In this document: piece by piece, positions 1-43,127 of the stretch
How positions within the stretch are numbered: the first letter of the stretch is position 1
Layout of the letters: each line of letters starts with the position of its first letter
Source of the DNA: Reclinomonas americana ATCC 50394
Lineage: Eukaryota
Assembly: GCA_048213135.1 (NCBI GenBank)
Contig: PS015502.1
Span: 39,993 to 83,119, forward strand
DNA length: 43,127 bases
Direction of reading: 5' to 3'
Notes under the pieces: model-generated
The model's database searches: none
What the model saw: the letters and a program-made list of their open reading frames with translations, nothing else
Told to the model about the DNA's origin: nothing
Made by a program: the position numbers and the translations under genes

Positions 1-1080
1 AACGAAGAGCGCTGGTGACAGCACTGGGAACGCACAATGCAGGGTTACGTCGGCGTGCGCGCACACGTGTGTGTGTGTGCATTTTGCGCTGTGCTGTTGT
101 TGATTGATGATTGTGTGTCGTCCTCAGGGCTCCGTTTACCATTCAGCGATTGTGTGAGTTGCTGGTGGACCCGCATCGCCACTATCGCAGTCTGCGCAAG
201 TTTGTGTGCGCTGTGGACAAGGTGTTGAATGTGGTGTCACCGTCTACCGTGGCCACGGCGACCGACGACGAAATGGTGGCTGTCGACGATTCGGAGGAGC
301 CCGCCGTGCCCATGGAGGAGGAGCCACCGGTGCGTCGGCCCCTCCCCCTCTGCTTCGCCGCATGCACTCATATTGTGCACAGGTTACTCCCTCGGTGCCA
401 TCGCCGTTGCCGTCACCCGGTCGCACATCGTCGCTCTTCTTCGGAAGCCACAGTCCGAATCGCGTGCCGCTGATTCCACAGCACGCCATCAGCGAGCCTC
501 ACCCGTTGCATCACCAGCCACCACCTGAACCGTTCGAGGCGAATCCGTTGCCTTTCGAGGCTCACATGCCGCTGGATCCGCACCACGCTTCCGGCTCCGG
601 CAGCTCCAGTGGCAGCACCTCACCACTTCTTCATCGACCGCAGTCGACGGCTTCCATGCGACCGTTGTCGCCGCCACCGTCGCCGCCGCGAGGCCTGCTC
701 GGCGCCAGCCACGTGGTACACCCACCAATGTCACCACCGCGGCTCCTGTCACAGCAGCAGCCGCCAATGTCGCCACCATCTCCCAATGGTTTGTTGCTTC
801 CCCCCCCCCCCCGTGTGTGTTGACAAGTGATGGAATGGGGCCTGACGGCAACAACAACGCAGCACCAAGCTCGCTCTTCCACACACAACACCCGCCATCG
901 GCGGTGGGTGCTCTCTGGCGGGCTCATGTTGCCACGGTGGAGGAGCCCGACGAACTGGCTCCGGTTGAAATACGTCCTCGACCGCCACCACCGCCGCCGG
1001 CAGTACAGCAGCAGCAGCAGAGTAGCAGCATGTCGGCGAGTGGGGACGCGGAAATGCGCGATGTCCAAGCGCCGGAATAA
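1..1080 (+). CDS. PPP4R2: Serine/threonine-protein phosphatase 4 regulatory subunit 2 (5' end outside the window; multi-exon)
   Basis: The spliced frame reads ...ALGTHNAG|APFTIQRLCELLVDPHRHYRSLRKFVCAVDKVLNV. PFTIQRLCELL is the hallmark of the PPP4R2/Psy4 family. It is followed by a low-complexity P/S/Q-rich tail ending at TAA 1078-1080. Introns at about 44-127, 330-381 and 789-863. Confidence 0.85.
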
Positions 1081-1152
1081 AGAGAATGCAAAGTTGGTAC
1101 GCTCTCGCCGCGGCAGGACACACACACACATGCACCGCGGTGCGAGCAGCGA

Positions 1153-3684
1153 ATGAGCGTAGCCTTTGTCGACAATCCAGTGTTTGCCGAGTACCTCGAT
1201 GGTACACGCAGCAGCGCGTACGCTCGTGTGTGAGCGGAGTGGACAACTGAGTGTGCCCTCTCTCTCTCTCTCTCTCTTTCTCCCTCATCGCAGAGTTGCA
1301 GCAGTCTGGCATTGAGCTGCCCGCCGTCGACATTGTACCAGCACATGCCTTGCAGCACGAGTCCGAGGAGAAGGAGCTGGAGCAGCACGCACGAGACGAG
1401 GTCAGATGCTTCGCGTGCGTGTTGGAGAGTGCGCACAAACTCAATCAACGTGCGCCTGTGCAGAGCTTGTCTCGCACGCCACCGTCGATAGCACATGTTG
1501 CACCCGCGGTACCTCGTTCTGATGGACTGACTCGTCTCTGGCGGAGGCGCCGAGCGCATGGTGCGGACTGATGAATGCAGGATCAGTTTCTTCACCTTGT
1601 CTCCGTGTGTGACCATTGGCTGCGGACCAGATTCTGTGTGGCAGTGGAGTGCGGTGGCCCCCAGCGGCGAGCAGCAGGTCGTGGCCAGCGATTCCACCGA
1701 CGAGGGCCAGCTGCAGCTCGTGGTCACGTGGCCGGTGACTGTCGCAGTGATCGCCGTGGTGCTTGCTCTGCAGTCAGAGTGCTGGATCTGTGTCTGCGTC
1801 GTCATGGCGTTGTTTGCGTTGCTGCTGGCGGTGGATTGGGTGCGTTGATTCGGGAAGGATGCAGCGTTTGTTCATGTTGTGTTGACTGAGTTTGTGCAGT
1901 ACCGGTGGGTGTTGCGGTCGTGTCGACTGGCGAATGTCGCGGCAGTAGATCGGCATTTGAGTGCGTGGCAGGAGGCAGAGCGGGCACTGGATGCGTGTGC
2001 TCGAGCCATTCGAGATGTGGAGGCTGTGCGTCGAGGATACTCGCTGTTGCGTTCTGCACTGCCCCTCTCATGTCCATCAAGTGCGCTCACGAGCCGGTTG
2101 CAGTCGCTTCTCAGCCCCCATGTTTGTGCCCGATGGCAGTGAGCCGTCGTCGCAGCCGCTTCGCCGTGAAGTGTTGGGTATTGTGTGTGATCTGCGCTAC
2201 AATGTGTACCAGCGCCTCGGCGCGCTGCTGCCCGAGCGGTCACTGCCCGCATCCTCGCCTGTCGGCGCTTCGGAAAATCTGGAGGACATTGGCCACGTGT
2301 TTACTGAGGCCGTCAGCACAGTGGCTGCCGTCTTTGACAGTGACCGCCTGTGCGTGGCGATCTCTCTCTTGCCTGGCCTGCATGCATCTCTGCTGGCCAT
2401 AGTCTCTCGATTGTGGCAAGCATCGCGATTGGCGTGCACAGCGACTGCGGACGAACTCGCTGGCGACGATGCGAGCGCACTCAATGTGCTGCGAGTGCAT
2501 GCCAGCCAGTTTGGGCGCGAACTGGCAGCCGATGTGCGCGAGATGCAAGTGCATTTGTGGAGCATCGAGAGTCTCCTCGGACAGACAGCAAGCGCGGACT
2601 CGTCCGCGACACCGGTCCAGGTCATGTGCGAGCTGCTCGATCGCTGCCTCCGCATGTCGCAGGCGTTTGCGATGTGGCAGGATCGCCTGTGGCCGCAAGG
2701 CCGTGTCGGGAGTGCTGCTGGCACCTCGAGTACCTCGTCGTTGCGTGACGCTACAATGACCGAGAGTGTCCTTTTGTTGAATGCACGCTCACGGCTAATG
2801 CCGCTCACGTAGCACCTCGGCTGCACTGGCGCGTCTGAACCCGTGGACGCAATACGTGCAAGCGGTGCTGGGAGACGGACTCGCGGATAGAGTATCGCTG
2901 TTGGCGGCGGATTGTTGCGCTGCATCACGCACCATCGTGTGCATGGTGACCTTTCTGCTGATGACATATGGCGATAGATTTTGCGAGGACGGGAACGGCG
3001 GTCGGTCGCCCAAAGCCGATACCAGCCGAGGGAGACGAGCAAGAGGAGCACGCAGCGGGCGGTGACTGGAGAGCACCGCTGGCGAGTGCGCGTCTCGCAG
3101 ACCTGCTGCAAATGGAGACGACAACGTTGGAGGTCGAGGCACTTGAAGTGGTGAGACACTGATGCGTGCAGTTGATAAATCTCTGGTGGTGCATGACCGT
3201 GGAGGGGCGCGTGCTTTCACAGGCGACAGAGAGTGCACGGCGTGAGGCGGCTACCGGTTTGTGTTTCTCGTGTTACCGATGAAAGTTCGCATTGTGCTCA
3301 TGCGTCTTCTGTCCCCTCGGCAGGCAGGTTTGCGTTGCCGCCTTTGCCGATGCAGTTCGCCATGCGAGCACAGCGGCGAGAAGAGGCCAGCATTGATGTC
3401 GACGATGTTGCGGCCGCCATGACCTCAAGCATGCCCAGCAGGGGTGCACCTACCACCCTCGGCGACAGTGACACCGATGATGATGATGCCGGCGCCGCGA
3501 GGTTCGATGTTTGTGCACGCACTGTGCCGTCTCATTTTTTCGACTCACTGCATTTCCATTCAGCGGCAGTCCGCTGCTGATGCGCGAACTGAGTGCCGTG
3601 CTGCGCAATCGTCGGGAGATTCGTGAGTCACGAATCGAAGCAGGACGTCAGCCAGCAGCACCACCGGCGCCACCTGCGTCGTGA
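1153..3684 (+). CDS. Vezatin-like membrane protein (multi-exon)
   Basis: N-terminus MSVAFVDNPVFAEYLD|ELQQSG. Two adjacent hydrophobic helices (VVTWPVTVAVIAVVLAL, CWICVCVVMALFALLLAV) are followed by ALDACARAIRDVEAVRRGYSL, which resembles the vezatin I(Q/R)E(V/T)ExxxRG(Y/F) motif. C-terminal LLMRELSAVLRNR; stop TGA 3682-3684. Family assignment is by motif recall. Confidence 0.6.
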
Positions 3685-15148: not shown

Positions 15149-17809
15149 ATGGAGTCGGCGACGACGCAGCAGCGGCAGCTGTTGGAGTCTCTTTGTTGCG
15201 TGCTCGTGTGTGTGTGTGCGCGCGCGCGCACGTGTGTGTTAGCGTGTGTGCCTGTGTGTGTGATCCATGACATCAACTCACGTGTGTGGCAGTGGAGCGC
15301 GTGGAGACCGTTGACACGGCGATGCGGCGATTGGAGAGCGCGATGGAACACATGAAGGATCACACTGCGCCAGGTGCCATGTCATCTCATCGCAGCGCGT
15401 GGTGATCGGTCAATCAATTTCTCATGCCTTCTTGTACCGCTGCACAGTGTTCTCGCAAGCCTGGGGCGCCATGTCGAATGAGCTGCGCGTTCGCGGCTTT
15501 GCCTCTAACTCTCCCACCGCCGCAGCCGACGCCGAGTTGATCGACTTTGGAACTCAATGATCGAGTCGAGTAGAGTGTGTAAAGCAAAACTGTAAATGAC
15601 ACAGCATCACCGCCGAAAACGCCTCGCGCAAAACGCACTCCATTTTGCTGCAATCACACTTGGTCACGGGCTGTTGCCGCGTGCACCATGTCAGACGCCT
15701 CAGTTGCCGAAGTGCTGCCGGTGACGATGATGCACAAGGCACCTGTGAGCGACGACAGTGAAGTCGGCAGGCCCACGACGCCGGCGGTGGCGGCTCGCAG
15801 TGTTCGGTGGCGGAGTACGCAGTCGAGCCCGACGGTGAGTGTGCGCGCGTGTGCATGCGTGTTGCAAAAAAACGAATGGAGGGGAGAAGCAGCTGGCTCA
15901 CACACGTAAGACGCAGAGAACAAGTTCTCCGCTGCGCTCCACGCTCCTCCCCAAATCAGCACTGGCCTCCCTGCTTCCTCCGCGTCTCGGTGTGCGTTCG
16001 GCGCCGCTGAGCGAAATGACAGAGGCCGTCAACCGCCGAGCCAACACAACTCTGGCAATCCTGGAGAGCACAGCGTCGGCGGTGGATGCACCAGTTCCCA
16101 ACACCGACAAGCCGCCTTCCCGGTTCGAGGCTCTCTCTCTCTCTCTCTCTCCTTTTCGCCACAGTCAAACTCACCCACTGGTGCAGCAATGCAAGGCAGC
16201 AGCACCACGGTGGGTTCCGAATACAGCCTGTGGGTGGAGGTGGAGGATCACGCGGTGCATCCACGGCGGCGTCGTCCGTCAAGAGCACCGCGCGCCGAGT
16301 TGCGGTGCGTGTGCACATGCCGCAGAGAGAATGCTGTTTAGATGGTCGTTTCCTGACCGATCCTGATGTGCGTGCACAGCATGGCGCCACTGCCGACGGC
16401 ACGGCCTTTATGCTCTCGTTGATTGGCAAGGCGGATCTGCATCAGTTCACTGAGCTGGAGAGAAATATGGGTGAGGGGGAGAGCGAGAGAATGGACAGGA
16501 GATCTGCGACGGTTGCGCTTAAGCTTACTGTGCGTCGGGGACCGGAATGCAGAGTGGCTCACCAGCGTGATCCAAGAGCCGCAAAGGCGCGTTCCTCGTT
16601 CACGCGGAGGGGCGAGACCGTCGGGCCTTACCCTGCCACCTCTTCAAACAGGTGCGTGTTGTGTGTCGATCTTTCCATTCCGCGGAGTAGTCAGCGAACT
16701 GATTGTGCGCAGAGGGCAAACCTCGGAGACCTGTGGATGCGGACAGCGGTAGGCAGCCGGTGGCCAGCGGCAACGATGTGGCGCGTGGAGCCGGTCTCAG
16801 TGCTGCCAAACCGAGACCAGCGCGCATGAGCAACATGCAAGCCATTGTGCGCGCCACATGTGACAAGTACGTTGCCGATCCGAAGCTGCTGCAAGAGCTG
16901 TTTTCACGTGCAGGTGTGTGCTGGCGCTCGTTAAGCAGGAGTGCTGCGTCCTCAATTGACTCGTCATGTTGCAGAGGCGGCTGAGGCCGAGATTCGACGG
17001 GAGGCCAAGGAACAGCAGCTGCGGTGGAGTGCGTGCGATCATTTGCAAACCAACAAGGCGCAGCTGCAGTCGTTCTCGCCGGAAATCCATCGCGAGCTGC
17101 AAGACGCCAAGATCCAACAGCGCCGCATGCACTTTGAACTCGTGACGCATCGACACGACGAAGTCGTGCAAACCACCGCCGCTGACTTGGAGGAATCGTA
17201 CAATTCGTTTGAGGAGCGACTTGCACGTGCAGAGAGCATCAAGCAGGAGGCGCTGCTGCTGCCGAAATTCCGACGTCTGCAATGCACGTGGATGACGGCG
17301 GTGATGGCTGCCTGTCGCGTTGTGTTCTTTGCCGAGACTCTGTTGGTGAGTGCGATGGCCTGTTTGTAGCCGCGCGCGGCACCTCCTGCATGCTCACATT
17401 TTTTCTCTCTTCGACAGACGAGTCAGGTGTTGTGGAAGCAGCAGCGCGCAGTGCGTGTGCTTGAAGTGCTGTTCATGCCAAGGGTGCGCACACAGTCCAC
17501 GTGCCTTNNNNNNNNNNNNNNNNNNNNTAGGACCGCGGCCAGTTTGGCGGGTGCGTTGGAGAAGATCCTTTACTTTCCGTTCTCTCACGTTCTCTGCGTC
17601 GTACCCACCGCCACTTGCGTCCGCAGACACTGCTCACCGATTGCGAGTTGCTGGAGATGCTGGTGGAATGCATCGCCGACGTGCGACTGAAGCCTCGGCC
17701 CTCAGCGGTCGCGGCGTCGGAAGCCACGAGCTCTCACATCTTGAAAAATCGCAGTCTGGCTGCGCGGCGTACGTTTGGAGGCTCCGGGACCTTCTTCATG
17801 CCGTCATAA
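15149..17809 (+). CDS. Uncharacterised coiled-coil protein (multi-exon, interrupted by a 20-N gap)
   Basis: ATG 15149 MESATTQQRQLLESL|LERVETVDTAMRRLES..., a helical exon EIHRELQDAKIQQRRMHFELVTHRHDEVVQ..., GT-AG introns, and an end at TAA 17807-17809. No family recognised. Confidence 0.55.
17508..17527. other. Assembly gap (20 N)
   Basis: Run of N. Confidence 1.
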
Positions 17810-22112: not shown

Positions 22113-25100
22113 ATGTCAGGGCGCCGCGGTGGAAGTGGAAACGGCAGTGGAGGCAGTGCAAACTCGCCTCCATCGTCTCCAAAAAGTGGCGGCAAACACG
22201 TGTCATCTCCTCCACTCCTGCGAACTCCGCCGCCGTTGCCGCCTCCATCAGTGCTCCAACAGCACATGTCACTTGTGCAACAACAGCAACAACAGCAACA
22301 GCAGCAACAGCAACCACAGCCGCGCTCATCTCCGCCTCTGCCGCCGCCACCACCGCCGCCTGCTGTGCCTGTGCGCTCGTCGTATGTGTCGCCCTCGGCG
22401 ATGAGTGGCAGCAGCTATGTGGTGGCGGGAGTACCAGCTGCTACCAGTACTACTGCTACTGCCACTACAGCGGTGCCAGTGGATGTGTCGCGGCGTCATC
22501 ATCATCATCACCCGCAACAGCAGCCGCACAATCATCATCACCAGCTCCAACCGCATTCACCGCACCTTCCGCAGCATCACTCACCACAGCAGCAGCAGCC
22601 GCGGTCACAGCAGCAACAGCAGCAGCAACAGGTGTCGCCGCCTGTGCCGGGAGTGGCTTTTCATGAGAGACATCCTTTGCAACCGCAATCTAGGTCGTCG
22701 CCACCACAGCAGCAGCAGCAGCAGCATGGTCGGCGACGACGCTCGCCAATGTCGCAGTCGCGTCCGCATGTGGTGTTTCAGCAGCCGGTGGATGACGTGG
22801 CGGGCGACGGCGATGATGATGCAGGAGGAGACGACGATGAGGCGTCTGAGGATGCGGTCGGCTCGCCAGACGGTGGTGACTGTGCGCGAGTTGCGTGGGG
22901 AGGCAGCGTGCCTTTGCGTGTGTGTGTGTGTGTGTGATGGGAACGCGAATCGTTACTCTTGTTGTTGCGTAGATGGGCGGTGCTTCGTCCTCGCTGGCCT
23001 CCACAGCGGTGCTGTCGCTTACCATGCCGTCTGCGCTCTTGCCCGGCGTCGCGAGTACCACACCGAGCGATGCGGCGACCCCCGCCACGGTCACACTGAC
23101 GACCAACACGTTCTTGCGAGGATTCCATACGTTCCTGCGCAGCGGCGAGTTTGCCGATTTCACTCTTGTTCTGCCGTCGGCGACCATGAAGCGCGCTCCG
23201 CTGTCGCTGGCGAGCCACATACGGCAGCACAGCTCGTCGTCGGAGCGAGACGGTGATGTGGATAGCGAGGTTCTTGGCTCACCCGACGTCGATGCGGAGG
23301 CCGCCGAGACAGGCAAGCGCCTCCCCGCCGTCGTCGGATCGTCGAGTACGGTCGCCGCGTCGCAACCAAAGAGACCACCACCGGCTGTCAGCGTGCTGCG
23401 AGGCGACGACGAGCGCCGGGTTCACCGCATCCTCCTCTCGCATCAGTCGGGATACTTTCGCGCCCTGCTCTCTGGCGACTTTCGAGAAAAGGACGAGGTG
23501 AGTCTGAGCAAAGCGTCGCCAGAAAGAAGGGCAAAAAAAAACTCACTTGATAAGTTTGCAGGGCCGTGTGGACCTCAGTGAGTTGGCCGACCCCTACCGC
23601 GTGTTCCCGACCCTGCTGGAATACTTTTACACGGGCTCGGTGGAAGTGACAGACGACACCATTATTCCGCTCATCTCCATGGCGCAGGTGTGTGTTGCAG
23701 TGCGGCGAGTGTCGAGAGGAAGTAACTGGTGACGCTAATGTGCGTGTTTGTGACTGCAGTTCTTTGAGGTGCCGGAGTTGTCCAAGTCGCTGGTAGATCA
23801 CGTGCACGCTCGCTGCCGTGATTCCACGGCGCCGCTGGTGCAATTCCTGCGCCTGGCCATCGATCAGTCGCTGGCTGACCTGGAGTCGTTGTTGCGTCTC
23901 GTCAGGATCGCCTAAACCAATCTCTTTTTTTCTGTGTGATTCATTGTCGTGTGCACAGCTTCCTGAGTTGGGTGGCGCGACGCTTCTCGCTGTACTGCTC
24001 AGACGAGCAGCTGGCGAGCCTCCCCACCGACAAGCTTATCGAGCTGCTGAGATTGGACGAGTTCTTTGCCGAGGGCGTTACCGACGTTGCGCACCGCATG
24101 CCTCGTCGAGCTCTGCACACGTGTGCGTCGCTCACACTTCCTCCAGGTGGCGACCTTTGCGTGCCTGCACATTCGGCTGGCCAGGGAGGTGTCGGCCAAC
24201 GAGTTCTGCGCCTTGTACGAACACGTGGACAAGGTGTGCTAGTGTTGATGATGTACCGTACCTCGTTGTCGAAAAACTGACCATGTGGTGCCATTAGATG
24301 TTGCCGGCCGACGCAGCATTCCTCTTGCGCCGTGCCATTTGCCTCGGCTGCGACATGCCAACGTCGGTGTTTATCGAGGCCATGGCTCGCGACATGTCGC
24401 AGCTAAGACCAGAGGCTCTTGTCGACCTGCCACTGGAAGGTTTGTCGTGGCGGGGTACCAGCCAGTGGTTGCAGTTCCCTTGCTGACGAGATGTGGGGTA
24501 CAGTCGTGGTCGCGCTGCTGTCCAGTGACATGTTGCACGTCGAGTCGGAGATGACAGTGTACCGTTGTGTGCACACGGTCGCCTCGGCTCGGCGTGAGAC
24601 CCTGGCACAGCAGGATCTGTGCAAGCTGTACGGCACAATTCGCTTCTCGTTCCTCACCGAAGAAGAGCTGCTGCTGGTGCGCTGCCAGCTGGGAGTTGAG
24701 AGTCTCCTTACCCCGTTTTTTTGCCTCACCCTCGGCCGTACATGTGCAGGTTCGCAACGACCCGCTCATCCCGCGTGAACTGCTGCTGGACGAGCTGATG
24801 ACGCTTGTCACCTCGAAGCACCGCATCATTCCCCAAAAGTTTGTGTGTGTGAGAGATGTGCTCTGTGGTTTGCACAGTTTTGCTGACTTGTTGCATTGTT
24901 GCCAGGTGCCGCTTTTACGTGCAAAAAGTGCGCTTCAGTGCCACTCTGCACGGGTCTCGCATCCATGTTGCGCCTTTCTTGATTGTCCTGCCATGGGAAA
25001 ATAAGGTCGTGTTACTGAGTGTGGCACTGCAGTTGTCGGACGATCGCTTGATGGCCGAGTGCGTCAACAAGGGCAATGCCGTCGTTCTCAGCGACGAGCA

Positions 25101-26030
25101 GTTCAGTGCCGGTCGTCATTATGTCGAAGTGGAGATCACAGGCGACAACGGCGAGGTAAGTATTTGATGAAATTGCTTCTTGTAGGGTGTTTCGAGTTCT
25201 CATTCTCTCGCACTTGGCACAGTATTATGTGGCCGTCGGAGTGGCGCGCAGTGACATCAACGTTGACAGCGACCTCGGCTGCCACGACACCAAGAGCTTT
25301 GGCTATTGGTCATTAGGTGCGGAACGAGGGGGGTCCTCGGCTTTCTCTTTTCTCTTTTCTGCCTGTCACGCAAGCCCCCAAAGCCGAATTGGTGTCGCGC
25401 GAGTTCCACGCGGCACTAATGGTCATGGCATTGCAAGATTGAGAAAAAGGGAGTGGTGTAGTGGTTGCAGCAGAGTGGGCTCCGTGTGCCACACAACTTG
25501 TGGATCACGTGTGCCTCGGTTGAAGAGCACTTTTGAGGCGTGCTTGGGTTTTAGCGCCTCTTTACATGCGGCTGCACCAGCACGTCGCAGGGGTTGTGAC
25601 TTTGCTGACACTCGTGATATCATCGTGTGTGTGGTACACTTGTCTATCGGTTGCACACTGTTCCACCTCCTTCCGAGCGAACCCCAGGCCGCTCGTGCCC
25701 AGCGATGAGCTTGTGACTCGCGCATGAGCGAAGTGGGTACTTTCGCACATTTTTTCTCCTATTCCTCCTCCTCCTCCTCTTCCTCCTCTGCCGTCGCCTG
25801 TCTCTTCTGTTGCCGTTCTCTTGGTGCGCAACTAATGTCGTTGGTGCAGGCAAGCTATACCCGAACAATGTGCAGTACGGCGAACGCTTCACCAAGGGTG
25901 ACCGCGTGGGCGTCTTTTTGGATTTCACCGCTGGCACTCTCCACTTTTACAAGGTGCGTTCACGCAGCTGTGCCTCGTTTCTTACCCCGTGTGCGCGCAT
26001 CTCTCATCCTCCACCTCATACAGAACGACC
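22113..26030 (+). CDS. BTB/POZ-BACK-SPRY domain protein (3' end runs into the assembly gap)
   Basis: Q/P/H-rich N-terminus. BTB: FADFTLV...RVHRILLSHQSGYFRALLSGDFREKDE, FPTLLEYFYTGSVEV. BACK-like: LLSSDMLHVESEMTVY, IRFSFLT. SPRY: GRHYVEVEI, VAVGVA, SFGYWS, YGERFTKGDRVGVFLDFTAGTLHFYK|N. Confidence 0.88.
25370..25755 (+). ncRNA. Candidate structured non-coding RNA inside the 533-nt intron (25317-25849) of the BTB-SPRY gene; class undetermined
   Basis: Multiple helices with G-U pairs on the + strand (25388-25399/25409-25420; 25479-25501/25705-25729; 25535-25540/25555-25560; 25578-25589/25595-25607). ANANNA-type AGAAAA at 25442, ACA at 25747-25749, then TTTTTT. Confidence 0.5.
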
Positions 26031-27025
26031 NNNNNNNNNNNNNNNNNNNNNNNNNNNNNNNNNNNNNNNNNNNNNNNNNNNNNNNNNNNNNNNNNNNNNN
26101 NNNNNNNNNNNNNNNNNNNNNNNNNNNNNNNNNNNNNNNNNNNNNNNNNNNNNNNNNNNNNNNNNNNNNNNNNNNNNNNNNNNNNNNNNNNNNNNNNNNN
26201 NNNNNNNNNNNNNNNNNNNNNNNNNNNNNNNNNNNNNNNNNNNNNNNNNNNNNNNNNNNNNNNNNNNNNNNNNNNNNNNNNNNNNNNNNNNNNNNNNNNN
26301 NNNNNNNNNNNNNNNNNNNNNNNNNNNNNNNNNNNNNNNNNNNNNNNNNNNNNNNNNNNNNNNNNNNNNNNNNNNNNNNNNNNNNNNNNNNNNNNNNNNN
26401 NNNNNNNNNNNNNNNNNNNNNNNNNNNNNNNNNNNNNNNNNNNNNNNNNNNNNNNNNNNNNNNNNNNNNNNNNNNNNNNNNNNNNNNNNNNNNNNNNNNN
26501 NNNNNNNNNNNNNNNNNNNNNNNNNNNNNNNNNNNNNNNNNNNNNNNNNNNNNNNNNNNNNNNNNNNNNNNNNNNNNNNNNNNNNNNNNNNNNNNNNNNN
26601 NNNNNNNNNNNNNNNNNNNNNNNNNNNNNNNNNNNNNNNNNNNNNNNNNNNNNNNNNNNNNNNNNNNNNNNNNNNNNNNNNNNNNNNNNNNNNNNNNNNN
26701 NNNNNNNNNNNNNNNNNNNNNNNNNNNNNNNNNNNNNNNNNNNNNNNNNNNNNNNNNNNNNNNNNNNNNNNNNNNNNNNNNNNNNNNNNNNNNNNNNNNN
26801 NNNNNNNNNNNNNNNNNNNNNNNNNNNNNNNNNNNNNNNNNNNNNNNNNNNNNNNNNNNNNNNNNNNNNNNNNNNNNNNNNNNNNNNNNNNNNNNNNNNN
26901 NNNNNNNNNNNNNNNNNNNNNNNNNNNNNNNNNNNNNNNNNNNNNNNNNNNNNNNNNNNNNNNNNNNNNNNNNNNNNNNNNNNNNNNNNNNNNNNNNNNN
27001 NNNNNNNNNNNNNNNNNNNNNNNNN
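26031..27025. other. Assembly gap (995 N) hiding the 3' end of the BTB-SPRY gene and the 5' end of the next gene
   Basis: Run of N. Confidence 1.
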
Positions 27026-30000
27026 GCTGTCATCGACCCCCGCCGGCGCTGGCGCCACTGGACCTCTCTCGCTCACGCTTTCCTACGATGATGGGAGGCG
27101 GCGACTTGGGCCGGATGGCGATGAAGACGACGAGGAGGACGACGATGATGATGATGATGACGACGATGAGGATGACTTGGATGAGGATGATGATGGAGAG
27201 GAGGAGGACACGGCGCAGATGGAGAGTGCGCGAGGTGTGGATGACGATGGTGGAGGCATTGGTGTTTCTCGGTACGTGTGTGTGTGTGTGTGCTTGTGCA
27301 TGCGGTGCGAGGGAATGACAACTGAGATGCAATGCAGGCGGCGGTCGCGGTTGCGGCGCGCGGCGCGTCAGCCGTCGCTGCAGGAGTTGCCAGGGTTTGT
27401 GTTCGTAAAGTGCCGCGCAGGGTGCGTTCGACCTGACGCGGTCTCTTTCTGTGTCTGTGTGTGTGTTCCCCCGCGCGCAGTGTGCTGCCAATTCCGATGG
27501 AGTGGGAGATCGCATTCTACGCGCTGGCGCACTTGGTCTTCAAGCAGGGGGCGCTGGACGATGCGAATCGTGATCCAGTGACCTTTATTCCGGAGAGTGC
27601 GGCCGCGGCAGTTCGCCTCGTTTCGTATGCCGCGATGGCTGAGAGCGTGTGTGAGTTGAGGTGACTGAAAAACTCGCGACCATTAGGGTCTAGCGCCCGG
27701 TACCTCCGACCCCAAGGCCAATCGACGACTTGAAGCCATTGCACGCGTGCTGGTGGAGGCGTTTGACGAGCAGGACGTGAGCAGCGACATGATCAAGGCG
27801 TTTGTGGACTCGTCAGCAGATCGCTCTGACGCGTTTGCCGAACTGCCGTTGCGTGTTGTGCTGCGACTCCACGTCTGCCTACTCACTCACCCATTCACTT
27901 TCCACTGCCGCGCCTGCCTATTTTTGCAGTCGGATGGGAGATGAGGTCCGTGACCGCACTGGCAAGCTGGTGCAGCGCTACAAGTTCTTCCAGCCCCAGT
28001 GGCAGAGTGTGTTTGGTGCCGGCCATCGCGCACGCAACCTGGACGCTCTCAAGCAAGCCATTGTTCGCATGCGCACCGCGTACAACCGCTCTGGTGTGCA
28101 CGTGCATGTGGATGTGTGCGATCCAGTTGTCGGTTCTCACTGATCGCTCGCCCTGCAGATCTGGCAGAGGAAATGGTGCGACGCCGATCCGACGATGCAC
28201 GCATGCTGGAGCGCATTGACAAGGGACTCCGGCTGCGCTTGAGTCATCTGCTGAAGAAGGAGGTGTTCTTCTATCGGTGAGACATGCCCTTCTATTGATG
28301 TGCATGTTGCACTCGCACGTGGACTCATCAAGTCTGCAGCTACGTGTGGGTCAACGGAGCGCACTATTATTTGTGCTTGTGCGCCAAGAGCTTCTGCCTT
28401 GTGCGTGGCAAGCCGCTGCGCGACGTCGACAGCGTACTGTACGCACACATTACGCGTATCACGGAGGACGAGGAAGACATGGGACTTGTGCAGCTGACCA
28501 TCCAGAACCACGTTGCGCTGGCACTCGGTGTGCTCACAAGATCGTTGAGTGCATGCAATTCACACTCTGTGCGTGCACAGGACGACCTCTTTATCCAGGC
28601 GGACTGTCTTCGCGAGATCGTCACCGAGCTGTGTGTGCAGTGGAAGACCGACTACATGATGCGCAAGCGCGAGGTGAAGAACATTGCCGTGGAACGCGGC
28701 ATCTGCCGCTTCCCGCGTGGCCTCAAGCGCCCGTACGAACAGTACGCATCGTTCATTACGCCGCCGTTTGGGTGCGTTGTGTGGGTGCGCTTGCGATGTT
28801 GGTGCACATGCATGCTCACTCTGCGCGTGAGCAGCATGAGCCTCGTGCGCTTCGGTGTGGGTGAGCACACAAACCATTACTTCTTTTTCAAGCCCGACAA
28901 CTTCGTCTTCAATCAGCAACGCACGGATGCGATTCTTCGCCGACACCGCGATGAGGATCAGCAGCGGTTCGCCGAGAGGAAGCCACCGAAACATCGTGAT
29001 CGTCAGTACCTGGCATTCCACAATGGTTTGCATTGTTGATGCACACAGGCGTGATTGTATCGCTGACAAATCTGTGGCAGAGACGGAGACTCCACCAGTG
29101 GCGTTCCTCACGGTCGAAGTGAAGCCGCCCAAGGTTGTTCACTTTGTCAATCGCAGTGACAAGATTGTGTGTCGCCTGAAGGCCGAGACGCGAGCCAAGC
29201 GCGTGTTTGTTGCGTGCCAGTGCGCCGTCATGACTGTACCCCCCTCCAGTGTCTCACTTCGAAGTGCAGAATGTGTTCGAGGACTTTGAGTCCATGCGGT
29301 CGCACTCGTACCGCAAGCGCGCAAATCTTTCGTGTGATCCCTCCACGTGGTACTGCCATGAGGTTCGTAAGAGAGGGAGAGAGCGGTTGTGCTTTGTTGC
29401 TCAACGATATCGGTGATTTATAGGTGCATCTCAAGTCGGGGAAGCGCTCAGTTGGCGTCATTTACGCTCGTCGCAAGTGTTCGTCACCGTTATTTGTTTG
29501 TACCCCGTCTCCAATTGTTGCGTCGGCTAATGTCGCTATGTGTGTGTGCGCGCACAGTCATTCCGCCGGATGCCGACACATATCAGGACTTTGTGCTTGT
29601 GCTGGAGCAGAACCGCACCAGCGTGGACGGTAAGATGATGCGCGTGCGTGTGCCGCAGATCTATTCGTGATTGACCATGTTGGACACACTTTGGCAGCCT
29701 CCGTGAAGCAAACTCGAAAGGATTTGACTGGTTTGTTACTTGAGTGTGCGCACATGCACGTTGCCACCGTGCACTAAGTGTTGGCGTTGTGTGCAGCTGA
29801 GCTGTGGGAGAAGATTCATCTGTATGACAAGCTCCACTATGACAGCAAACGCAGCTTCCAACAGCGTGTCCTCGATCCCATTGGTGAGCACGTGAGCGCA
29901 ACCAAGTATCTCACAATCGTGTTTCACACTGTCTTCTGGGTGCAGACGGCAGTCAAAAGGTGCTCTTCAGTGACGAGATTGTTCGACCGCGGCGGCAGGA

Positions 30001-38981: not shown

Positions 38982-41900
38982 TCATGATGAGGGACTGGGC
39001 GCGAGTGGCGAGTGGTTGCCAGACACTGTGGAGAGGAGATTGTGGTGAGTCAGTGGGTGAGACGACGTGTAGCGTCACAAATGTGCATGTCACGCAACTT
39101 GAACGGCGAATCAGTGAAGACGGCAGCGCATCGCGCGATGTCTGGCGATGCGATCGTTCGCGTCGGTGGGCGCGCTCCGAGGCCAGGATGGACACGTCGC
39201 GCAGATGCTTGGTGTGCTGGTTGAGGAAACCGTGTTGCATCTGCGCATCGTCGTCTGCAGCTGCAGCGGTAGCAGCGGCGGCGGCGCGAGGAGGAAGAGG
39301 CGGCAGCGGCCGGTGCGCCACTGGCACTCCGGTCACGATCGCGTCGTCCACTCCCGCCCCGGCGTGTGCACCCGCCACGGCGACCACGGCGGCACCGACG
39401 CTTGGTTTCTTCGGGCGCGGCGGATTGGACGAACCGGTGCCGGCTGTCGGCGAGGTACCGGGGGGTCGGCTACCGACCGTCAACTCGACCGCGGCACTGG
39501 TGCCTTCGTTTGGCAGCTTTGCCGGTGGTGGTGGTGGCGGTGGAGCCTGTACATGGCTGGTTAGTGACCTTACGAGCCCGTCGCACGCGCTGTGTTGCAC
39601 TCTTACCTCGCACTCGACGCACTGCACAAAGACGTCGATGGTCTCGAAAAACGATGGCATCGAGAACGTCTTGGGGTCTTCTGCAAAGTAGGCGCGCACT
39701 TGGTCCCGCAGTGCAGGCACACGCGCCGCATCTGCCAGCAGACTCTTGTATTGAGCCTCGTGCCGCTGTGTGAGGCAATACAATGAGCATAAAAAAGTGA
39801 ATCGAAGCCACAAGTCTGGTCCGGCGACATGCACACCTGCAGTTCAGAGAGAACAGCCGGACCGAGTGGGTCATGCGGATGTGACAACGAGGCAGCAGCC
39901 ACCTTTTGTGCCAGTTCCCATGCCGCGCGCAATTGGTTGACAGATTGCAAGGTGACTGTGTGTGCGTGTGTGAGTTAATGCACTCGTTATTGGAGAACGA
40001 GTAAAAGAAGAGACCAACCATCAACATTAACTGCGACAACGAAACAAGAAAACGTGAGCAACGAGACGGTGATGGAGGGCGATACAGTGCGTGGGACTCA
40101 CCGGCGCGGGCGTCGACAATGTGTGGAAGCTGTGACGAGGGATCATGAGGCGTTTCGCGATTGCGAGACCGTGTGTGCTGATGAAGATTTCAAATGCACG
40201 TACCTCAGAGCGCACGTCGAGCAAATCGTGTTCCGAGTGCGCAATGTGCTCCGCGATGCACTTGAGGAGTGTGGTGCCCCGATTGCTCCTCGTTTCCCGC
40301 AGCTATTGTAGTAGTGCGTGAGGAAGAGCTGTTGTGGGTGCGAGGACGAGTGTCGATACTTCGCTCACCTTGGTCAGTGACTCCAGCTTGAAGCCAAAGG
40401 TGTTACCGCGGTGCGTGTTGCCGTTGACGTAGTTGCCGATGGCGAGAACGACAGTGAGAAGCCGCACAAGCCGCCTACTTTGCAGCACCTACAGGAGGAG
40501 GTACACACACAATGTCACCGTCGTGTGCCCACACATGCAGCGGACTACAGAGCAAGCAAACCTCGGTGCACGCAAACACCACATCTTCCACTTTCTGCGA
40601 CACCATACACGCACTGGTTAGATCGCCACGAGGGAATGCCGCAGTTCCAACACCTCCGCTCCACTCACTCTGTGCAGCTCGTCCAGTGCCGCCGCACATC
40701 GAAGGGAGAACAACCAAGTGTTGAGTCGATCCAACAGGCGTGGCACAGCAGTCACCTGATGAAGGTACCGATCATCAGTGACACGAACCTCGTCGGGGCA
40801 GCACCGGCCTGCAGCACTCACCGCTCGAATGAATCGCTCCGGAGCATCCAGCGCGTCCTCTGGTCCCTCAAAGGACTGCACGAGAGTCACCTACAAGGCA
40901 TGGACCAACATCCAGTGAGCACGTGCTTGCCATCTGCGCTGCAGTTCTTTCAATGTAGACCTCATCCTCGGTGGGAATTTGCATCGCAGCGATCAGTGAT
41001 TCCACCTGTCGTGCCAGCAGGAATGGTTAGCTGTAGGGAGAGTGGACGGACTGCTCTCGACTGCCACGTGCCTTTTCTTCGGTGAGGAAGTTGCGGTCCA
41101 TCATTGCGATTGCGTGCTGCACACGGTCGAACGGGGGTTGCTCAAAGACGCGACGGACAATGATGCCTGCAGCAAAAGTGTACACAGAGTCAGAGAGGCA
41201 TCAACGGGCACATATACGTGTGAGGCCAGCCAGTTGCTTGCGAAACTCATGTTGAGATGTCGTCGTCCCTCCAGCAGCTGCAGTTTACGCACAGCTACGA
41301 AAAAACCACGGGAGGTGACATCACTGCCGAACGCGCTCTCCAAGCAGTCACAACATTCACGCAACTTGGCTTCGGCTCCGGCGCGGGTGGCCCGTTGTGC
41401 TCATCGTGCCGCACTGGTGCTGGCGCCGGTGCATCGAGAACACCGAACAACGTACACAGTCGTGTCTCATCCAAGTGCACCGTCGACACGAGTTGGTCCG
41501 TCTGCAGTGATCGATGCGGTCAGAAGCAACAGAAGGGTGTTGAGTGAGGAGGACGGCTCACCTTTCCCAGCTCCCACACAGTTCCCTTGAGCTTCTCGCT
41601 GCACACCGATGAGAAATCGACGACGGATGAGACACCGCTGACGAGACAGCTGCAGAGAAAAACACGACTCACAAAGGCAGCTGGCTCCACTGAAAACCTC
41701 GCATCTTCATCGGCGGAGTCGGAACATTGATCTTGCGCTGTGTAAACTGGTTTGGAGCAGGAGGGGCAGGTGGTGCCAGAGGACCCGGTGGAGCAGGTGG
41801 TGCGGGTGGTGCGGGTGGTGCGGGCGGTCCAGGTGGGCCGGGTGGGGCTGGCGGAGCGGGTGGCGCAGGTGGGGCCGGTCGTGCATGCTGCTCTTGAGGC

Positions 41901-43127
41901 CTGGGTGGAGCAGGTGGAGCGGGTGGTGCTGGCGGAGCCGGCGGGGCGGGTGGTGCTGGCGGCGCTGGTGGCGCAGGTGGCGCTGGTGGCGCTGGCGCAT
42001 GCTGATCTTGAGCAGGCGCTGCGCTGTGCGACCCGTTTGCTTGTCGCTGGCTGAGGGCGTCGTGGAGTAGTTCTTGCACCGCGAGGCCGAGCTGCATAGG
42101 CGTACTTTATGATACACACGTTCGCGCCTTGTGCTCCATCAAGATTCACACACACCTTGGACTTGAACGCGGCAGCGCGCAAACGCTCAGCAACCGATGC
42201 CGGGTCCGCATGAAGCACATCACGAAGCATGTCCACGTCTTCTTGCTGGCTGAGTTCGCGCTATGCGAACGACAAAAGCAACTCAGCAATCACAGCTACT
42301 GTCGATCGAGCGCGCACGCTTCTCACCGCCATGTGCTCTTTGTGCAGCGACTGCAGCTTTGCGCGATCGCTCTGCTCGATAGAACGGTCGGTGATGCCGT
42401 GACCTGGTGGAGAACACAACATGTGAGCACCGCATCACTTTGTTACAGAGTGCAATGGACACACCAGTCTCAAACTCGCGTCCAGTACTCTGCACAAAGC
42501 GTGCCAGCGCTCGCCAAAACACGGTCACCGAATCCGGTTGCCTGCCGTGTGCGTGTTAACGAGGTGGAGAAATAGCTGTGTCGTAAGCGCACGGCGACGC
42601 AACTCGTCAACATGCTGCGACACTCGCAGCAACTCCTGCAGTGCACGGATAAAGTGACCCAGCGATTCGCTGCTGTTGCTGAGTTCCACTGCGGTGGCAT
42701 CGGCAAGAGCTGCTGGATCCGTGACAATCACACAGCGAGTTAAGGAACACATCAAAGCAGTGCATCAAATGGAAGGCAAGGCACACAATTGACAAGAGCA
42801 AAGGATATTCAACATCGAGAAAGAGCAGGTCGTCTGACGGATCTCGGACCTCCTCTAGCAGTTCGTTGAGATGCTCAGCAACTTCACGCGAAATCGCTGA
42901 CTGTGTATCGAGCTCCTCGGCGACCCTCTGTCAGTATGCATGATGATGAGCGTGTGCAAGACCGGTGTTACACGGTCTAGAGATTCCAGCAGTGTTACCA
43001 TGCAGACGTCGACCAGGTGGGCGGCACGCAGCTCGCGCTTCAGCTTCCCGCGCATGTGCTCGGCCACATCCAGCATCACGTTAAAGTACGTGATGCAAGC
43101 AAGCTGCCACGTACGCGAGACACGTTT
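38982..43127 (-). CDS. Formin (FH3-FH1-FH2); 5' end outside the window
   Basis: FH3-like LACITYFNVML; FH1 (PPA)n; FH2 PMKMRGFQWSQL, KGTVW, LLEGRRHLNMSI, VLAIGNYVNGNTHRGNTFGFKLESLTKL, GTTLL, YFAEDP...FF. Inferred stop TGA 38984-38982. Confidence 0.93.
41006..41071 (-). other. GC-AG intron in the formin FH2 region
   Basis: AAG|GCACGT donor, GCTAAC branch, CAG acceptor. Joins NFLTEEK|VESLIAAM and removes an in-frame TAA. Confidence 0.7.
41757..42000 (-). repeat. Coding 9-bp degenerate tandem repeat encoding the (PPA/PPG)n FH1 domain
   Basis: The + strand shows repeated ggtggcgct/ggtggtgcg/ggtggagca units. The minus translation is APAPPAPPAPPA... Confidence 0.9.
42721..42808 (-). other. U12-type (minor spliceosome) AT-AC intron in the formin gene
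   Basis: Minus-strand donor ATATCCTTT (42808-42800), perfect branch point TTCCTTAAC (42747-42739), acceptor CAC| at 42721. Joins LFLDVE|DPAALAD in frame (phase 2). Confidence 0.93.

Follow-up and report, generated by a model that had tools for sequence, protein, structure and literature searches.

Here we describe an unusually long and structured intron in the nuclear genome of Reclinomonas americana ATCC 50394 (Eukaryota). It lies in a stretch of 43,127 nucleotides (nt) of contig PS015502.1 (assembly GCA_048213135.1, positions 39,993 to 83,119 of the forward strand), which we refer to as the window and from whose first letter all coordinates are counted. With a GC content of about 58% throughout, the window is eukaryotic nuclear DNA that is dense with intron-rich genes, and the Pfam domains recognized in its open frames include, among others, phosphoribosyl pyrophosphate (PRPP) synthetase, a gamma-tubulin complex component, a PX domain, an amino-acid transporter, BTB and an FAD oxidoreductase. 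The host gene of the intron is encoded on the + strand, starts with an ATG at 22973 and carries BTB, BACK (E 7e-5) and SPRY (E 1.3e-6) domains, with BTB and BACK located upstream of the outsized intron. The exon on its 3' side corresponds to positions 57-84 of the SPRY profile (E 1.3e-6).

The intron at 25317-25849 has GT-AG boundaries, is in phase 1, carries a CTAAT 14 nt upstream of the final CAG and interrupts a SPRY domain that is otherwise contiguous. To place it within the gene, GT-AG choices were enumerated for 11 introns between 22973 and 26030 with 25317-25849 held fixed, which left 36 models free of stop codons. It is a genuine and outsized intron: the remaining 10 introns of the host gene measure 55-86 nt in every one of the 36 models, so that its 533 nt amount to about eight times the length of its neighbors. 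An initial annotation, made from the letters of the window, had singled out the same intron as oversized against others of about 60-120 nt, and this holds with the range just given. A 5-nt GGTGC repeat found at both of its ends is accounted for by the donor and acceptor consensus. Tandem Repeats Finder detected only two tandem repeats within the intron, TTTCTCT and TCC, both in the flanks (Table 1), and only the TCC repeat at 25756-25789 has look-alikes elsewhere in the window, all of them low-complexity matches.

The 122 nt at the 5' end of the intron (25317-25438) by themselves resemble a complete short intron, with a GT, a branch-like CACTAAT located inside a 12-bp hairpin and a GCAAG at the end. 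Short repeats tie this segment both to the end of the exon and to the region of the true branch site, namely CTATTGGTCAT/CTAATGGTCAT and GCGGCACTAATG/GCGCAACTAATG. Nested or recursive splicing at 25438 was considered and rejected, as no donor is regenerated there and an in-frame TGA follows immediately.

Table 1. Features of the outsized intron and of the exons that flank it, in window coordinates. MFE, minimum free energy.
Feature	Position	Strand	Basis or measure
Upstream SPRY-domain exon	25223..25316	+	Ends in phase 1; reading frame and GT-AG model
Outsized spliceosomal intron, 533 nt	25317..25849	+	GTGCGG donor, CAG acceptor; present in 36/36 stop-free gene models
TTTCTCT x 2.7 pyrimidine repeat, 5' flank of intron	25342..25360	+	Tandem Repeats Finder
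Predicted 5' hairpin HP1, core formed by 12-bp stem 25388-25420; 3' arm holds branch-site-like CACTAAT	25383..25430	+	-22.0 kcal/mol
GAGAAAAA, 5' half of predicted 8-bp domain-closing stem; includes AGAAAA	25441..25448	+	Pairs with 25751-25758 in MFE and centroid folds
Predicted unbranched rod, 223 nt, 86 bp (70 Watson-Crick and 16 G-U), apical loop TTTACAT at 25561-25567	25449..25671	+	-100.9 kcal/mol
Predicted 3' hairpin HP3, 22 bp, 70 nt, abuts ACA	25677..25746	+	-28.8 kcal/mol
ACA, then T6 and CTC; 25751-25758 form 3' half of closing stem	25747..25758	+	Motif position and pairing
TCC / CTCCTCTTC simple repeat, pyrimidine tract	25756..25789	+	Tandem Repeats Finder
Branch-site-like CTAAT and 3' splice site (…GGTGCAG)	25832..25849	+	Read from sequence; neighboring short introns share the layout
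Downstream SPRY exon	25850..25953	+	Pfam SPRY PF00622, E 1.3e-6, 29 bits against a cutoff of 26.3

Folded freely, the interior of the intron is predicted to form a domain in which an 8-bp closing stem embraces a long unbranched rod and a 70-nt hairpin on its 3' side (HP3), with a separate hairpin (HP1) located upstream. In the rod, 25449-25560 pair with 25568-25671; within the context of 25217-25953 its mean pair probability is 0.88, and 61 of its 86 pairs exceed 0.9. Its longest uninterrupted helix, 25484-25495/25628-25639, has 12 bp, and the rod is broken by a bulge every 3-8 bp. Several of the helices are built from GT- and CA-rich words. The closing stem, GAGAAAAA/UUUUUCUC, joins 25441-48 to 25751-58 with a pair probability of 0.34-0.65 in context, and in the MFE fold of the whole intron 25441-25448 pair instead with an upstream U run. 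The T6 that follows ACA occupies 25750-25755. The two hairpins were compared with 300 shuffles each: four were as stable as HP1 (z -2.82, mean pair probability 0.69) and nine as stable as HP3 (z -2.06, mean pair probability 0.85).

The shuffle controls of folding preserved dinucleotides, and throughout this work the folds are thermodynamic predictions from one sequence. In the folding comparison with shuffled sequence that the initial annotation had proposed, the region 25440-25760 is, on the + strand, more stable than all of 100 shuffles (z -4.04), which upholds its view that the intron holds an unusually structured + strand element. For the rod itself the z-score is -4.36, with none of 150 shuffles as stable and none unbranched. 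Real introns serve as a second control: among 400 windows of 223 nt taken from 10 concatenated neighboring introns, none reaches -100.9 kcal/mol (mean -69.7, standard deviation (sd) 7.1, minimum -92.2 kcal/mol). Adjusted for GC content, the structured core ranks first in stability among 515 windows on each of two strands of the 43 kb (-3.06 sd), and so does the rod, at -3.15 sd, when 3318 windows of 223 nt are compared. The shuffle z-scores of 22 random windows lie between -1.72 and +1.96, and those of the next four best windows between -2.37 and -3.17. Over its full 533 nt the intron stands out less (z -2.25 for the + strand, -0.72 for the - strand). From the lengths involved, the chance that the most structured stretch of the window falls in this 533-nt intron would be about 1.3%. 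The part of the 43 kb with the most structure is found in the only outsized intron, and we take the predicted structure to be more than chance.

The predicted fold belongs to the sense RNA: the rod is far weaker on the - strand (-72.6 kcal/mol, with three hairpin loops, versus -100.9 kcal/mol on the + strand), and it has 16 G-U pairs while A-C oppositions are absent from its symmetric loops. The initial annotation had likewise assigned the structure to the + strand from its G-U pairs; the strand preference stands, but the G-U count is no higher than composition gives (14.2 +/- 2.8 in shuffles). Since shuffles of such G+T-rich sequence carry as many G-U pairs, the strand bias is weak evidence for selection. 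Elsewhere in the window, a repeat region of about 70% GC at 41780-42010, made of GGTGGNGCN, also gives an unbranched predicted hairpin on the + strand (-113 kcal/mol at 41876); it looks like low-complexity sequence and no discrete RNA.

In its details, the favored fold departs from the one first drawn. The 12-bp hairpin at 25388-25420 is present (-17.3 kcal/mol), and the motifs listed initially, AGAAAA at 25442, TGGTGTAGTGG at 25454, GGGGT at 25590, AACCCC at 25680 and ACA with T6 at 25747, were all recovered at, or within one base of, their reported places; GGGGT has a second copy at 25330. A rod made of 25470-25521 and 25680-25746 did not survive. Its arms can pair as an isolated duplex (-39.1 kcal/mol), but when this rod is enforced in the full domain the energy is -91.9 kcal/mol, compared to -137.1 kcal/mol for the free fold and a shuffle mean of -113. 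The three hairpins that it was said to enclose do fold in isolation (-10.3, -12.1 and -5.9 kcal/mol); in context they are displaced by the pairs of the rod in Table 1, which have a probability of 0.9-1.0. A kissing contact between GGGGT and AACCCC is disfavored as well, with the GGGG at 25590-93 predicted to be paired within the rod and not in a loop.

Does the element belong to a known class of RNA? The Rfam search suggested at the outset was run with Rfam 15 and returned no match at gathering score over the window and none at E<=10 over 25100-26030, nor any microRNA (miRNA) family; the window contains no rRNA, and ARAGORN found no tRNA in it. The identities proposed initially were a long H/ACA-type small nucleolar or small Cajal body-specific RNA (sno/scaRNA), an RNA polymerase III (Pol III) transcript and a novel intronic RNA, and the first two are not supported. 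An H/ACA RNA is defined by an ANANNA H box in the single-stranded hinge between two hairpins and by an ACA three nt from its 3' end, directly after the 3' hairpin. Its pseudouridylation pocket is an internal loop of large size that precedes the box by about 14-16 nt. In the intron ANANNA occurs only at 25442, 25491, 25524 and 25617. The hinge that separates the rod from HP3 (25672-25676) contains none of them, and the nearest candidate, AGCGAA, has a C at its third position. The AGAAAA at 25442 does sit between HP1 and the rod, but two hairpins come after it instead of one. The ACA at 25747 adjoins the 3' end of HP3 and might be an ACA of this kind. A pseudouridylation pocket was not found in either hairpin: HP1 has none, and the internal loop of HP3, 14 nt before ACA, comprises just 3+3 nt and is too small. 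With no covariance-model match, no hinge H box and no guide pocket, the H/ACA assignment is not supported.

C/D snoRNAs, in turn, have a C box (RUGAUGA) located 5' of a D box (CUGA) and a terminal stem. The sole C-like motif of the intron, GCGATGA at 25702 (one mismatch), lies downstream of its sole CTGA at 25605, and this class is not supported either. A Pol III gene with an internal promoter, of the tRNA-like, SINE or 7SL type, has an A box and a B box. Allowing one mismatch, the A box has 20 matches in the window where 18.7 +/- 4.0 are expected, and of 93 B-box matches with at most two mismatches in the window none falls within 25317-25849. Such a gene is not supported: the A-box-like motif is at chance level, the intron has no B box and the window has no tRNA. 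The T6 of the outsized intron might be a T-run terminator at a 3' end, but T7 runs occur in ordinary neighboring introns too, e.g. near 23925 and 24716. On its + strand the intron has a cluster of three motifs ending in AGTGG, at 25454, 25468 and 25726, none of them more than one mismatch away from the A-box consensus of tRNAs. Judged by eye, no convincing match to the m1/m2 elements of snR30/U17 or to a telomerase template was seen. No sno/scaRNA, signal recognition particle (SRP), RNase P/MRP or U3 RNA is known to have the shape of an unbranched 223-nt rod. What remains would be an unclassified structured intronic element.

No copy of the structured core was found in the other 42 kb of the window. 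When metagenomes were scanned with the frame that stays open into the intron, 190 pattern matches arose, none of which was confirmed; a scan with the 83-aa SPRY exon produced one locus at 40% identity, which was set aside as spurious, lying on a GC-rich contig that, judged by reading, looks bacterial. An exact 26-nt pattern from the core had no matches in prokaryote genomes and none in viral contigs. Direct or inverted duplication inside the intron does not exceed chance: the best inverted alignment of the rod arms has a score of 19, which 11% of shuffles reach (null 15.8 +/- 2.2), and the sole long ungapped inverted pair of the intron has 12 nt. The 8-nt ends GAGAAAAA/TTTTTCTC, read from the sequence, have no matching duplication in their flanks. 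A miniature inverted-repeat transposable element (MITE), a foldback element and an internally symmetrical intron were all rejected on these grounds, as the arms form no DNA inverted repeat above chance and no target-site duplication was found at the ends.

What lies at 25317-25849 is a spliceosomal intron of exceptional length, whose predicted stability is exceptional and strand-specific and which carries neither a coding signal, as set out below, nor the signature of a known RNA family. The explanation we lean toward, with slightly less than even confidence, is that of a structured long intron that would act in cis, within the pre-mRNA or the excised intron, and would not constitute a separate gene. 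The extra sequence of about 320 nt (25441-25758) would form a self-contained domain, confined to the sense strand, that comprises the 223-nt rod and the 70-nt hairpin and is loosely closed by a stem of an A run and a U run, with a further hairpin upstream. It might be inserted or expanded sequence that survives by packing itself away from the splice signals. Alternatively, it might belong to a family of structured, mobile introns similar to the introner-like elements (ILEs) of fungi. We infer that the fold forms in vivo and matters for splicing or for the spread of the intron, and that no discrete RNA is released.

A number of observations weigh against this explanation. Even with the domain looped out, an intron of about 170-215 nt would be left, two to three times the normal length. 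No benefit to splicing is apparent: the 5' splice site and the branch site are separated by a graph distance of 17 in the MFE fold and 21.5 in the ensemble, and 112 shuffled interiors bring them equally close (17.0 and 16.7). Of those shuffles, 77% are as short or shorter, and a role like that of the zipper stems of yeast is not supported. The defining trait of ILEs, many near-identical copies, was not seen within the window, where the core occurs once. The structural evidence also consists of thermodynamic prediction on a single sequence, and the rod, although first by rank, is no gross outlier (-3.15 sd versus -2.77 for the runner-up). A GC-adjusted rank of this kind is roughly to be expected for the most extreme among a thousand windows; 11 of the 3318 windows likewise give unbranched folds, and the 16 G-U pairs equal the expectation from composition.

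Several of these points would equally fit an intron without function, one that grew neutrally through insertions and simple-repeat expansion and whose G+T-rich sequence represents the extreme tail of foldability. In favor of this are the first rank at just -3.1 sd among some 1000-3300 overlapping windows, close to the extreme of a normal background, together with the unbranched folds and G-U count just mentioned, the simple repeats in both intron flanks and the fact that any shuffled 533-mer also brings the intron ends together. However, the z-scores of -4.0 to -4.4 were not matched by any of 100, 150 and 400 controls and the next best windows reach just -2.4 to -3.2. In addition, the most structured stretch, with its very high pair probabilities, is found in the only outsized intron, where by length it should fall about 1.3% of the time. 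We consider neutral growth unlikely. An intron that hosts a stable non-coding RNA (ncRNA) of an undescribed or highly diverged class appears to us improbable to a like degree. Such an RNA, of some 320-380 nt and running from 25383 or 25441 to about 25752, would be trimmed from the excised intron, in the manner of intronic snoRNAs, and act in trans. The sense-strand fold is strongly stable, strand-specific and well defined, HP3 directly abuts an ACA, and AGAAAA fits ANANNA and sits between two hairpins. Moreover, in genomes with short introns the hosting of snoRNAs is a known cause of longer ones. Against it stand the lack of any Rfam match even at E<=10, the absence of a C box ahead of a D box, of a hinge ANANNA and of a pseudouridylation pocket, and the 223-nt rod, a shape not known from any sno/scaRNA, SRP, RNase P/MRP or U3 RNA. 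Furthermore, a BTB-BACK-SPRY gene is not a typical snoRNA host.

The long, unbranched and imperfect hairpin on the sense strand might also recall a precursor of small RNAs, miRNA-like or of the hairpin-RNA type, cleaved by a Dicer-type enzyme during or after splicing. Such a precursor would have a duplex of about 21 nt with few mismatches in an unbranched hairpin. Several 21-nt stretches have 18 paired positions and 3+2 unpaired ones (e.g. 25500-25520/25604-25623 and 25527-25547/25578-25597), an observation that decides nothing. No miRNA family of Rfam matches, no uninterrupted helix is longer than 12 bp, bulges recur every 3-8 bp, and the arms are no recognizable inverted DNA duplication (19 vs 15.8 +/- 2.2; 11% of shuffles). 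We hold small-RNA processing to be quite improbable. Least probable by far, and hardly to be expected, is a coding or cassette exon concealed in the intron, or a protein isoform made by its retention. The frame of the upstream exon does stay open for 130 codons into the intron (25316-25708), which 3.1% of 5000 shuffles match (P = 0.031), and 25317-25438 resembles a complete short intron (GT, CTAAT, AAG). An open run of equal length in any frame is nevertheless found in 22% of shuffles, splicing at 25438 leads to an immediate in-frame TGA, and the SPRY domain is contiguous without the intron. GC at codon positions 1/2/3 is 0.57/0.62/0.50 in the in-phase intron frame versus 0.62/0.42/0.76 in the host coding sequence, the codon log-odds of the intron are negative in all three frames, and Pfam gave no match to its open frame. 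Compared with 1.84 billion protein representatives, the 129-aa intron frame had only four weak matches (E 1e-5 to 9e-4), all to multi-repeat C-type lysozymes. These were attributed to chance, their scores being inflated by 4-9 repeated stretches of which a single one gives about 28 bits at 31% identity, while the codon statistics are non-coding. A coding role was rejected.

Returning to the structured intron acting in cis, we regard it as a well-supported structure prediction and as a candidate, not yet a discovery. A single 533-nt intron that folds on the sense strand amid introns of 55-86 nt is a natural test case for how long introns survive under a spliceosome used to short ones, and it bears on whether structured introns spread as mobile elements beyond the few fungi and algae so described. 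More far-reaching outcomes seem to us unlikely: the locus could represent a new class of released rod-shaped ncRNA of about 320-380 nt (hairpin, 223-nt rod, ACA-ended hairpin), or the first structured self-propagating intron family of its lineage, with the fold driving the spread. A discrete RNA product, should one exist, would represent an unclassified ncRNA of medium size from a lineage that is under-sampled. We call the lineage poorly sampled because a search of longer proteins with the host BTB-SPRY exon found no detectable relative, and the PRPP-synthetase exon found none above 57% identity (over 37% of the query).

Further irregularities occur in the host gene and elsewhere in the window. 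A run of 995 N at 26031-27025 begins 8 nt past the next intron of the gene and hides part of the SPRY region and the sequence beyond; a second run, of 20 N at 17508-17527, looks like an assembly gap. Between two coding stretches of the SPRY region, a 27-nt GT...AG piece at 25006-25032 is in frame and free of stops; it falls below the size of introns in this genome and is probably coding. Four host introns (23885-23958, 24061-24146, 24677-24749 and 24839-24905) have weak or ambiguous donors, with candidates that include GTCGTT, GTTGCG, GTCAGG, GTTACC, GTTGAG and GTTTGT. Their exact 5' ends are uncertain, and every choice keeps the length at 55-86 nt. In addition, (GT)n microsatellites are located just upstream of or within the host gene region, at 22917-22937, 27272-27290 and 27452-27468.

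How does this intron compare with systems that are already known? Like the H/ACA and C/D sno/scaRNAs encoded in introns, the element lies on the sense strand in an intron of a protein-coding gene and has hairpins before an ACA and an ANANNA-type motif. Unlike them, it has no Rfam match, the wrong order of C and D boxes and no hinge H box or pocket, and its size of about 320-380 nt and its 223-nt rod are atypical. The internally symmetrical introns and stwintrons of the Hypoxylaceae, and introns derived from transposons, are symmetrical at the DNA level and repeated. The intron described here resembles them in that its interior can fold into a long hairpin, but its arms do not align beyond chance, its fold is confined to one strand and no target-site duplication was seen at its ends. 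Introns of these kinds are the subject of PMC8469720 and PMC11282704. Exceptional length and a stable internal structure able to loop out sequence are shared with the long introns of budding yeast that carry zipper stems between the 5' splice site and the branch point (PMC12350175, PMC2536676, PMC12311795). The main stem here, by contrast, is internal and does not bridge the splice signals.

The fungal ILEs bring us nearest to what is found in R. americana. They are described as spliceosomal introns of significantly greater length than the regular ones, with secondary structures predicted to be stable, and they occur in hundreds of copies that later decay toward normal introns (PMC3609843). 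Theirs are near-identical copies in unrelated genes, whereas the 43-kb window holds no second copy of the intron described here. On the other hand, the same source describes what is also seen in the host gene, namely a canonical spliceosomal intron (here GT...CTAAT...CAG) that is much longer than the regular introns, has a markedly lower predicted folding energy and lacks coding capacity (PMC3609843). By its length, its predicted structure and its splice sites, the outsized intron would thus have its closest described counterpart in the fungal ILE, a resemblance in which the multi-copy trait is judged within the window alone.

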